From a virus (lineage: Duplodnaviria > Heunggongvirae > Uroviricota > Caudoviricetes), in IMG/VR virus record IMGVR_UViG_2695420382_000006: 13,986 nt of DNA; one strand, 5' to 3'. A program made the translations under genes and the position numbers. Positions 7,051 through 13,986 of this stretch are shown here, piece by piece (position 1 is the stretch's first letter; every line of letters starts with the position of its first letter). The notes beneath the pieces were generated by a model that searched no databases, was not told where the DNA came from, and saw only the letters and a program-made list of their open reading frames with translations.

Positions 7051-7773
7051 TTACACTGGTGTGTTCAGCAAATCGTTAACGGCATCAGATGCCGGGTTAC
7101 CTGCAGCCAGCGGTGCCGGTGCCCCCTGCATCAGACGATCCAGCGCAGTGTCACTGCGCGTCTGTGCACTCTGTGGTGCTGCGGCCAGAATACGGCGGGG
7201 NNNNNNNNNNNNNNNNNNNNNNNNNNNNNNNNNNNNNNNNNNNNNNNNNNNNNNNNNNNNNGCAGTGTCACTGCGCGTCTGTGCACTCTGTGGTGCTGCG
7301 GCCAGAATACGGCGGGCCGTTTCCACGGTCATACCGGGGGTTTCGGCCAGCACGCGTGCCTGTTCTTCGCGTCCGTGAGCCTCCTCACAGTTGAGGATCC
7401 CCATAATGCGACTGTTTTCTGCCGCAACCGCTGCGGTGATCTGCGCGTTCACGTCCGGCTGCGCCGCGCTGGCGTTCTCGCCCTCCGTCGCTTGCACCAC
7501 GCCAGTAACGTCAGCCTGCGAAGCAGTGGCTGAAACAGTTGTTGATTGAGTCTCTTTGGTCATTCGCCCTCCTGAGAGACGGGATTTACGTGCATCCAGT
7601 GCATCACGCATGACGGTGATCGCATCGGTACTGTTAACAAGTTCATCAGCCAGTCCGGCATCAATGGCCTCCTGACCGCTGTACACTGCAGCCTCGGTAT
7701 CCAGCACAGCCTGCACGGACAGGCCGGTATATGCCGACACCTTCTGTGCAAACATCCGGCGGGTTGCATCCAT
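7051..7773 (-). CDS. nu3: Capsid scaffolding protein Nu3 (in-frame internal start within C); reading frame interrupted by a scaffold gap and duplicated flank
   Basis: Internal Met at MDATRRMFAQKVSAYTGLS... is residue 136 of the 7051-8178 ORF, which places it at 7773. Without the 117-nt gap-plus-duplication the product would be 201 aa as in lambda Nu3. Ends ...ASDAVNDLLNTPV. Confidence 0.6.
   Translation of the reverse strand: MDATRRMFAQKVSAYTGLSVQAVLDTEAAVYSGQEAIDAGLADELVNSTDAITVMRDALDARKSRLSGGRMTKETQSTTVSATASQADVTGVVQATEGENASAAQPDVNAQITAAVAAENSRIMGILNCEEAHGREEQARVLAETPGMTVETARRILAAAPQSAQTRSDTXXXXXXXXXXXXXXXXXXXXXPRRILAAAPQSAQTRSDTALDRLMQGAPAPLAAGNPASDAVNDLLNTPV
7145..7317. repeat. Direct duplication of ~55 bp (7145-7199 and 7262-7316) flanking an N-run; unmerged overlapping contig ends
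   Basis: The same sequence gcagtgtcactgcgcgtctgtgcactctgtggtgctgcggccagaatacggcggg occurs immediately before and after the N-run; the translated protein repeats RRILAAAPQSAQTRSDT on both sides. Confidence 0.85.
7201..7261. other. Assembly or scaffold gap (61 N)
   Basis: Uninterrupted run of n characters in the supplied sequence. Confidence 0.98.
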
Positions 7774-8448
7774 CCGGGACTGCAATGTTTCCCGGACATC
7801 ATCCGGTAGATGGCTGTAGGGGTTGCCATCCACCTTATGGCTGCCGCTGTAAATCAGCGTGATTTCCACGCCCTGTTTCTCCAGTGCAGCGCCGTAATTA
7901 CTGTGAGCCATCATGACGCCGATGGAGCCTGTCCGGGCGGTCTGCGTGACCAGACGCCGGGAGGCGGCACTGGCAAGCAGCTGACCTGCGCTGCAGTTCA
8001 TGTCATTGGCCAGCGCCCATACCGGCTTTATGTCACGCACACGGGCGATGATGTCAGCGCAGTCAAATGCTCCCGCCACCATTCCGCCCGGTGTGTCCAT
8101 ATCGAGCAGAATGCCGTCCACCATCGGGTCGCTGGCAGCCTGTTGCAGACGGGCGATAATGCCGTTGTAACCGGTCATCCCCGAGTACGGCTGACCAGCG
8201 TGCCGGACACCGGCAGCACGGCGATGCCGTTCATTACCTGATAACTGCGGGCCTGTCGTGGTCCGTCATCATCACCGGATAACGCCAGCGCCGCGGGTGC
8301 CTCTCCGGCAGTCAGGCTGTCGCCGGATACTGCATCCGTCAGGCAGCTGATCCCAAGCTGGCCTGCAAGCGCACAAAAGAAAACCCGCGCATAGGCGGGT
8401 TCAAGCATCAGCGGCTCATTAAAAGCCATGCTGGCAATATGCGGGAGA

Positions 8449-12149
<3,701 letters not shown>

Positions 12150-12175
<26 letters not shown>

Positions 12176-12695
12176 TCAGCAACCCCGGTATCAGTTCATC
12201 CAGCGCGGCTGCTTTGTTCATGGCTTTGATGATATCCCGTTTCAGGAAATCAACATGTCGGTTTTCCAGTTCCGGAAAACGCCGCTGCACCGACAGGGGG
12301 ATCCCGTCGAGAATACTGGCAATTTCACCTGCGATCCGCGACAGCACGAAAGTACAGAATGCGGTTTCCACCACTTCAGCGGAGTCTCTGGCATTTTTCA
12401 GCTCCTGTGCGTCGGCCTGCGCACGCGTAAGTCGATGGCGTTCGTACTCAATAGTCCCTGGCTGGAGATCTGTCTCGCTGGCCTGCCGCAGTTCTTCAAC
12501 TTCCCGGCGCAGCTTTTCGTTCTCAATTTCAGCATCCCTTTCGGCATACCATCTTATAACGGCGGCAGAGTCATAAAGCACCTCATTACCCTTGCCACCG
12601 CCTCGCAGAACGGGCATTCCCTGTTCCTGCCAGTTCTGAATGGTACGGATACTCGCACCGAAAATGTCAGCCAGCTGCTTTTTGTTGACTTCCAT
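12150..12695 (-). CDS. nu1: Terminase small subunit gpNu1 (cosB-binding)
   Basis: 181-aa ORF MEVNKKQLADIFGASIRTIQNWQEQGMPVLRGGGKGNEVLYDSAAVIRWYAERDAEIENEKLRREVEELRQ...; lies directly downstream of cosB. Confidence 0.92.
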
Positions 12696-12716
12696 TGTTC
12701 ATTCCACGGACAAAAA

Positions 12717-12836
12717 CAGAGAAAGGAAACGACAGAGGCCAAAAAGCCCGTTTTCAGCACCTGTCGTTTCCTTTCTTTTCAGGGGGTGTTTTAAATAAAA
12801 ACATTAGGTTACGGCGAAGAAGAACGGAAACGCCTT
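12717..12836 (-). promoter_or_regulatory. cosB: terminase-binding R elements R1 (~12719-12736), R2 (~12761-12776), R3 (~12821-12834) with an AT-rich IHF-like site I1 between R3 and R2
   Basis: Three copies of the core CGTTTCC / GGAAACG in the orientation pattern known for lambda cosB: agaaaggaaacgacag, ctgtcgtttcctttct, and cggaaacgcc near 12825; the AT-rich stretch ttttaaataaaaacatt lies between. Confidence 0.75.
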
Positions 12837-12867
12837 AAACCGGAAAATTGTCATAAATAGCGAAAAC

Positions 12868-12890
12868 CCGCGCGCCTTCCGCCCCGTAAC
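12868..12890 (-). promoter_or_regulatory. cosN-like terminase nicking region, variant core GGGCGGAAGGCG instead of lambda GGGCGGCGACCT
   Basis: Reverse complement of 12861-12892 reads caggttacg-gggcggaaggcgcgcggg-ttttcg; both flanks match lambda cos while the central hexamer differs. Confidence 0.6.
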
Positions 12891-12915
12891 CTGTCGGATC
12901 GCCGGAAAGGACCCG

Positions 12916-12935
12916 CAAAATGATAATAATTATCA
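12916..12935. promoter_or_regulatory. Fur-box-like operator: perfect 7-1-7 palindrome TGATAATAATTATCA (12921-12935)
   Basis: 12921-12935 is a perfect inverted repeat TGATAAT-A-ATTATCA, matching the 7-1-7 reinterpretation of the Fur box; the extended 19-mer matches about 16/19 of GATAATGATAATCATTATC. Sits in the AT-rich intergenic region between cos and the plus-strand accessory ORF. Confidence 0.35.
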
Positions 12936-13083
12936 TCTACATGTCACAACGTGCATCTACGCCATCAAACCACGTCAAATAATCAATTATGACGCAGGTA
13001 TCGTATTAATTGATCTGCATCAACTTAACGTAAAAACAACTTCAGACAATACAAATCAGCGACACTGAATACAGGGCAACCTC

Positions 13084-13317
13084 ATGTCAACGAAGAACAG
13101 AACCCGCAGAACAACAACCCGCAACATCCGCTTTCCTAACCAAATGATTGAACAAATTAACATCGCTCTTGTTCAAAAAGGGTCCGGGAATTTCTCAGCC
13201 TGGGTCATTGAAGCCTGCCGCCGGAGACTGTGCTCAGAAAAAAGAGTTTCGCCTGAAGCAAACAAAGAAAAGAGTGACATTACTGAATTGCTCAGAAAAC
13301 AGGTTAGACCAGATTGA
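13084..13317 (+). CDS. Small hypothetical protein (77 aa), possible ribbon-helix-helix DNA-binding fold
   Basis: ORF MSTKNRTRRTTTRNIRFPNQMIEQINIALVQKGSGNFSAWVIEACRRRL...: a basic N-terminus, then a putative beta-strand (RNIRFP) and two short helices, the layout of RHH proteins. Weak SD (AGGG) 8 nt upstream of the ATG. Divergent from the late operon. Confidence 0.45.
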   Translation: MSTKNRTRRTTTRNIRFPNQMIEQINIALVQKGSGNFSAWVIEACRRRLCSEKRVSPEANKEKSDITELLRKQVRPD

Positions 13318-13374
13318 AGCAATTTAGATAATCGTGCAGACTACGCCCCCTCATATCACATGGAAGGTACTACA

Positions 13375-13785
13375 ATGGCTCAGGTTGCCATTTTTAAACA
13401 AATATTCGATAAAGTGCGAAATAATTTAAACTATCACTGGTTTTATTCTGAACTAAAACGTCACAATGTCTCACATTACATTTACTATTTAGCCACAGAG
13501 AATATTCATCTTGTTCTTGAAAACGATAATACGGTTTTAATAAAAGGACAGGGTAAGGTTGTAAATGTAAGATTTTCAAAAAATAAATGCCTTATAGAAG
13601 CCACCTTAAAAGGATTCAAATCAGGAGAGTTATCATTTTACGAATACAGGAAAAATCTTGCTACAGCAGGGGTTTTCAGATGGATTACAAATATCCACGA
13701 AAACAAAAGGTATTACTATACCTTTGATAATTCATTACTCTTTACTGAGAACATACAGAACACTACACAAATATTTCCGCACTAA
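13375..13785 (+). CDS. Hypothetical protein, 136 aa (alternative start 13360 gives 141 aa); possibly the cos-proximal accessory protein seen downstream of bor in lambdoid prophages (YbcV/DUF1398-like, unverified)
   Basis: Clean ORF with good SD GGAAGG 7 nt upstream of the ATG at 13375. Markedly AT-rich relative to the structural genes. Same strand as the RHH-like ORF. Confidence 0.55.
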
Positions 13786-13986
13786 ATCATAACGTCCGGT
13801 TTCTTCCGTGCCAGAACCGGACTCGCTGGCATGATGAAATATGTGTACCCGGTAACCCCGGTGTGCATCGTTTTTGATTATTCCCGCACACTCGCGCAGA
13901 AGGAGTTCCCCGTCGGGCTACGGTCTCTGTTAATACGGGAATACGGCGACGATTGGATTTGCCCCTATATTTCCAGACATCTGTTA

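Follow-up and report, generated by a model that had tools for sequence, protein, structure and literature searches.

The 13,986-nt stretch of viral DNA analyzed here (IMG/VR record IMGVR_UViG_2695420382_000006, hereafter the window) raises the question of how a terminase very close to that of phage lambda comes to be paired with a cohesive-end site, cosN, in which five of six adjacent bases differ from those of lambda. The sequence-only reading of the locus had left three explanations side by side: a packaging-defective cos, a different cohesive-end sequence, or a local sequence error. The answer that we consider very probable from the comparisons described below is that the window carries a functional lambda-type cos (cosQ-cosN-cosB, then Nu1 and A) in which the right half of cosN is a natural alternative allele. 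Among the three explanations, that of a different cohesive-end sequence is the one supported, the allele being recurrent and found together with a lambda-identical terminase.

The cos module of the window

Lambda orientation corresponds to the minus strand of the window, on which cos reads GGTTACG/GGGCGGAAGGCG/CGCGGGTTTTCGC, the 12-mer between the slashes being the equivalent of the lambda cohesive end. With its near flanks the site is GATCCGACAGGTTACG GGGCGGAAGGCG CGCGGGTTTTCGCTATTTATGA, and the wider region (window 12930-12830, minus strand), which is GCGGGTCCTTTCCGGCGATCCGACAGGTTACG/GGGCGGAAGGCG/CGCGGGTTTTCGCTATTTATGACAATTTTCCGGTTTAAGGCGT, is collinear with the lambda cos junction. The lambda reference NC_001416 starts with GGGCGGCGACCTCGCGGG, and its bp 1-12, GGGCGGCGACCT, are the cohesive end. 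Alignment of the two 12-mers confirmed the initial claim of five changed bases in cosN, all of them among the last six of the cohesive end: positions 7, 8, 9, 10, and 12 differ (window 12873-12878) and C11 is retained, the hexamer at positions 7-12 being AAGGCG here and CGACCT in lambda. The G+C content of the 12-mer is 10/12 in both forms. On either side the match to lambda is exact, over 16 bases on the left of cosN (GATCCGACAGGTTACG) and over bp 13-34 on its right, and within lambda bp 1-133 outside cosN only 6/127 positions differ. At this rate the calculated probability of five or more differences in six adjacent positions is about 1e-6, and the cluster therefore represents a discrete allele, not scattered point divergence. 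A local inversion was also considered as the origin of the patch and rejected by inspection, because inverting CGACCT gives AGGTCG and not AAGGCG, and the inversion of a longer segment would require additional indels.

Table 1. Features of the cos module and the adjacent terminase genes in the window.
Feature	Position	Strand	Basis or remark
cosQ-equivalent GGGTCCT, packaging-termination element	12908..12914	-	invariant block in alignment
Conserved left half GGGCGG and CG pair 5' of the top-strand nick position	12879..12886	-	invariant in alignment; under selection and conserved (PMC4669245)
cosN cohesive-end equivalent, 5'-GGGCGGAAGGCG-3'	12873..12884 (position 1 = 12884, position 12 = 12873)	-	collinear with lambda bp 1-12
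cosN right half, positions 7-12	12873..12878	-	at least 11 alleles between invariant flanks
Conserved CG pair (lambda bp 13-14) flanking the bottom-strand nick position	12871..12872	-	alignment; PMC4669245
cosB: R3 at 12820-12835, then I1, R2, R1	12720..12835	-	lambda alignment; element positions from PMC9026076
Nu1 (TerS), 181 aa	12150..12695	-	178/181 identical to lambda (98.3%); frame intact
A (TerL), 641 aa	10250..12175	-	638/641 identical to lambda (99.5%); T151S, D185E, T466I; frame intact

The elements surrounding the altered patch are collected in Table 1. The GGGTCCT block is presumably cosQ, a name that we take over from the lambda literature (Wieczorek and Feiss 2001). The stretch that includes it, GGGTCCTTTCCGG, does not vary; it is collinear with lambda and lies at the lambda spacing from cosN, free of indels. 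The lambda-type cosN pattern ACG/GGGCGG....../CGCGGG is found in the window, and its defined bases are invariant across all alleles recovered. On the cosB side, the alignment with lambda runs ungapped over bp 13-133; it includes an identical R3 (bp 50-65) as well as the R2 and R1 sequences, and the distance from cosN to R3 is that of lambda. The claim that cosB and the terminase proteins are near-identical to those of lambda is thus borne out by the gpA and gpNu1 identities in Table 1 and by the unchanged R3 and spacing. W, B, D, E, FI, FII, Z, U, V, G, T, and the part of H that lies in the window are 94-100% identical to their lambda counterparts.

Some further features of the window deserve mention. 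At window position 12850 (lambda bp 35), in the spacer between cosN and R3, A is replaced by C (ATGAAAATT to ATGACAATT); the change accompanies both cosN alleles, being found in the canonical genome 20AR0354 and in several variant IMG/VR loci, and is therefore an independent polymorphism. Beyond cos, the plus-strand ORFs at 13084-13317 and 13360-13785 are YlcI/YnfO-family and DUF1398 (ydfO-like) genes in matching E. coli prophages, and the lambda genes annotated on the far side of cos are different ones (bor, ybcV, and ybcW).

Gene C (prohead protease, minus strand) carries a 19-bp deletion relative to lambda, with its junction at window 8179-8204; the deleted lambda segment, cagccggacgcgggcgctg, lies between CAGCCG direct repeats. 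The frame of the gene is shifted after about residue 96, and tblastn placed residues 1-96 and 99-439 in different frames. This deletion was seen only in the genome of the window itself, represented by IMGVR_UViG_2693429733_000004 (L069), a prophage contig of 28,960 bp that belongs to an isolate genome and matches window 7262-13986 at 100% identity (6,725 bp); it is absent from 32 other loci matching the full-length pattern and from L031, a relative that is 99.9% identical to the window and has the same cosN. At window 7201-7261, inside the C/Nu3 coding region, there is a run of 61 N with about 55 bp of identical sequence duplicated on both sides; it is an assembly or scaffolding gap and gives rise to an apparent 39-aa insertion in C/Nu3 relative to lambda. 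Either the prophage is unable to build heads, owing to a defect in head maturation, or the draft assembly is faulty at gene C. Because gene C is frameshifted, the prophage of the window may make no particles, but neither the gene C defect nor the assembly fault bears on cosN.

Recurrence of the variant cohesive end

The sequence-only reading had proposed to look for the variant among other lambdoid phages and prophages, and it does recur, in complete E. coli genomes, IMG/VR, metagenomes, and GenBank phage records. A 101-nt probe gave near-perfect matches in complete E. coli genomes, seven of which were examined further. The exact variant 12-mer is present in six of the seven, namely APEC E14033 (chicken, Korea), 582 (human, Czech Republic), ETEC1721 (pig, Belgium), NCCP 15734 (stool, Korea), YZ22PE68 (pig, China), and Z1323CEC0019 (chicken, Korea); the seventh, 20AR0354, has the canonical cosN, as do lambda and phage 2H10. 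A 50-nt variant probe, for which seeding is possible only across the variant bases, gave 169 matches, spread over 158 of the 5,426 complete E. coli genomes and including 16 on plasmids (those listed being roughly 36-68 kb in size, several of them about 46 kb). The matching canonical probe found 8,412 places in 4,486 complete E. coli genomes, and the variant accounts for about 2% of the lambda-type cos sites in this collection. In IMG/VR the exact 27-mer occurs in 78 contigs and the canonical pattern in at least 120 rows, while a 24-mer composed of the variant cohesive end and its right flank was detected in 31 metagenome contigs, some of which are labelled human gut or food. When one genome per species was scanned, the allele was found only in Escherichia sp. 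E1V33, and no species-representative genome outside Escherichia contained it with these flanks.

Two GenBank phage records, YDC107_1 (classified as Ravinvirus) and PhiR46_1, carry the allele, both in prophage orientation. PhiR46_1 is an N15-like linear plasmid-prophage with telL/telR ends and ParAB, in which the lambda-like head and tail genes from Nu1 through J are complete and uninterrupted and gpA is identical to that of lambda at 638/641 residues. Its host is listed as E. coli ECOR13 in the GenBank host field, and a literature search on the PhiR phage series yielded no publication on the isolation of PhiR46_1. The E. coli "plasmid" pEC21Z151-46K has the gene order of PhiR46_1 and an identical cos region. 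None of the 78 IMG/VR and 31 metagenome contigs starts or stops at the variant cos (GGGCGGAAGGCG); for this search in IMG/VR, a pattern without the left flank gave the same 78 loci.

The arrangement of cos sites is unusual in two IMG/VR records. The metagenome-derived IMGVR_UViG_3300045988_113976 (56,122 bp) contains the variant cos twice with identical flanks (L039 and L047), which suggests the assembly of a terminally redundant or concatemeric phage genome. In IMGVR_UViG_2623620496_000002 (L032), two cos sites in the same orientation, at about 216 and about 12481, are separated by about 12.3 kb; one has AAGGCG with a lambda-type cosB, and the other has the canonical CGACCT followed by an unlike sequence, TTTATGAGCCTTTTTCGGGTGC, at the place of cosB. 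The pair could reflect a PICI-like or satellite cos beside a prophage.

Probable packaging at the altered site and the alternatives

Published genetics has established that cosN is functionally asymmetric. Many mutations in bp 7-12 are of minimal consequence, and C11G is without effect, whereas its symmetric counterpart G2C reduces the yield about 10-fold; lambda TerL gives equal bursts on cosN-lambda and cosN-N15, the cosN-lambda control yielding roughly 120 pfu per cell (PMC4669245). Natural differences from lambda in the right half have been described for N15 and phiD326 (positions 9 and 12) and for Gifsy-1 (positions 8, 9, and 11), the CG pairs flanking the nicks are conserved, cosQ is without natural variation, and Feiss et al. 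(2015) concluded that bp 7-12 are free of selection (PMC4669245). The cohesive end of mEp213 and LLS is GGGCGGCGCGCT (PMC12315714). A full-text literature search for the exact 12-mer GGGCGGAAGGCG or its reverse complement returned no relevant match; that search did not extend to Vahanian et al. 2017 (Virology 509:140), cited in PMC12315714 as a dedicated survey of how cosN varies in nature.

Compared with lambda cos, the window shares cosQ, the left half of cosN, both CG pairs, and R3 with its spacing, R2 and R1 being present, and is unlike it at cohesive-end positions 7, 8, 9, 10, and 12. N15 (GGGCGGCGTCCG), phiD326, Gifsy-1, mEp213, and LLS resemble the window in that their changes fall only in bp 7-12 and the left half and CG pairs are kept, but the five positions changed here are more than theirs, and the present allele pairs with an essentially lambda TerL whereas the TerL of N15 is diverged (64.9% identical to that of lambda; PMC4669245). 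The laboratory point mutants of Xu and Feiss (1991), as described in PMC4669245, display the functional asymmetry by which the present allele should be tolerated, with right-half changes such as C11G being silent; those are single engineered changes, whereas the window has a natural five-change allele in which C11 is kept. The published tolerance data (PMC4669245) cover single changes or the two-position N15 allele, while in the present allele five positions are changed at once. AAGGCG is a further, fairly common member of the already described natural right-half cosN variants.

If the window carries a functional cos with this alternative allele, then, by the published genetics of lambda, TerS (gpNu1) and IHF would bind cosB, and TerL (gpA) would thereby be placed at a fixed distance from R3. 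The bottom strand would then be nicked between bp 12 and 13 almost irrespective of the sequence of bp 7-12, and the top strand at ACG^GGG, a step that would depend on the conserved left half together with the CG that flanks it. The products would be 12-nt 5' overhangs, GGGCGGAAGGCG and its complement, and the two chromosome ends would be mutually complementary because both derive from copies of the same cosN. From the pairing of the allele with a lambda-identical gpA and from the published tolerance, we infer that TerL would cleave the AAGGCG form efficiently.

A packaging-dead cos would instead mean that bottom-strand nicking is abolished and that the carriers are decaying prophages. The change of five of the six bases beside the bottom-strand nick, position 12 included, fits that view, as do the frameshifted gene C of the window and the carrier Z1323CEC0019, which is a truncated remnant. 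The state of the terminase genes argues otherwise: TerL, regarded as intact when it has an uninterrupted frame of at least 620 aa, is intact in 62/69 variant loci and in 50/64 canonical loci, so that decay is no further advanced in variant carriers than in canonical ones. Intact, lambda-identical terminase genes accompany the allele in many lineages, and the allele itself is exactly conserved over diverged lineages and several cosB-region sequences. In addition, the deposited phage PhiR46_1 carries it with all morphogenesis genes intact, and the changes are confined to the right half of cosN, which is tolerant of changes (PMC4669245). The packaging-defective reading is therefore unsupported, and we regard it as quite unlikely. 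It had also been held that the anomaly would lose its force if the same variant were common in functional lambdoid phages; the variant did prove to be common, and the functionality of its carriers is indicated only indirectly.

For an altered cleavage site, a co-evolved terminase whose nicking specificity matches the new cosN would be a natural expectation. However, no gpA column separates the alleles in an alignment of 101 TerL proteins (49 encoded at variant loci, 52 at canonical ones); the strongest association, N9D, is found in 24/49 variant proteins versus 5/52 canonical ones, and each group has a median identity of 99.4% to lambda gpA. Moreover, in two variant loci, the NCCP 15734 prophage (L004) and L052, gpA is that of lambda at 641/641 residues. 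The nearest-neighbour concordance of the allele with the adjacent 2.6 kb (cosB, Nu1, and A), which is 84%, might be taken to favor co-evolution, but physical linkage alone would yield this value, and on these grounds a matched change in specificity is very improbable. The concordance reflects linkage, and the allele is nonetheless polyphyletic. In the adjacent 2.6 kb, the relative second-nearest to the window is L154, at 0.49% divergence; it carries the canonical cosN, and recombination has therefore transferred the patch of six bases from one nearly identical background to another.

A shifted nick register giving a 10-nt overhang was also considered, as bp 10-16 read GCGCGCG and by inspection provide a second bottom-strand "CG^" two bases inward. 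Such a shift is hardly to be expected, because the nick position in lambda is set by the cosN-to-R3 spacing (PMC4669245, PMC9026076), which is critical according to the work that supplies the R3 coordinates (PMC9026076) and is unchanged here. Lastly, a sequencing or assembly error at cosN, to which a draft assembly with an N gap between duplicated flanks might seem prone, is refuted beyond reasonable doubt because the identical 12-mer recurs in many independent finished genomes and in the 78 IMG/VR and 31 metagenome contigs, including the 99.9% identical L031.

Allele spectrum of the cosN right half

The natural variation at this site was surveyed by scans in which positions 7-12 were left free between the fixed flanks ACGGGGCGG and CGCGGGTTTTCG, the loci counted being from IMG/VR and, in small number, from E. 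coli genomes and GenBank phages. At least 11 alleles were recovered: CGACCT (>120 loci); AAGGCG, the second commonest (87 loci, of which 78 are from IMG/VR); CAGGCG (4 loci); CAGACG (3 loci); AGACCT, GAGCGT, and TGACCT (2 loci each); and AAGCGT, AAGGCT, CGACCG, and CTGACG (1 locus each). GGGCGG, both nick-flanking CG pairs, cosQ, and the cosN-to-R3 spacing are constant throughout, the right half thus being polymorphic within flanks that do not vary. On the left of the AAGGCG allele many different flanks were found, and on the right of cosN, at the place of cosB, at least three distinct sequences. In these comparisons AAGGCG behaves as an old polymorphism that has been shuffled by recombination among the lambda-like packaging modules of Escherichia.

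The importance of the allele beyond annotation is small. Of the lambda-type cos sites, an exact-string search for GGGCGGCGACCT misses about 2% in complete E. coli genomes and proportionally more in IMG/VR, and the sticky end to be expected in cosmid or lambda-packaging work with such prophages changes. The allele also constitutes a natural five-substitution test of the Feiss-laboratory model, in which, with TerS anchored at cosB, the sequence has almost no influence on bottom-strand nicking.

Just one feature is mildly unexpected: the allele spectrum is bimodal, with CGACCT and AAGGCG dominating at five steps from each other and intermediates being rare. This dominance, together with the equal G+C content of the two forms, leaves room for the idea that two cohesive-end "compatibility types," rather than a neutral cloud of sequences, are maintained in the lambda-like phages of Escherichia, although we consider it unlikely. 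The two-base end mismatch involving N15 lowers the yield of viable phage about four-fold (PMC4669245). If compatibility types do exist, a five-base mismatch could block the circularization of hybrid chromosomes, whose two ends come from cos sites of different types, as in polylysogens or co-infections, and the two groups of phages would be partly isolated from each other genetically.
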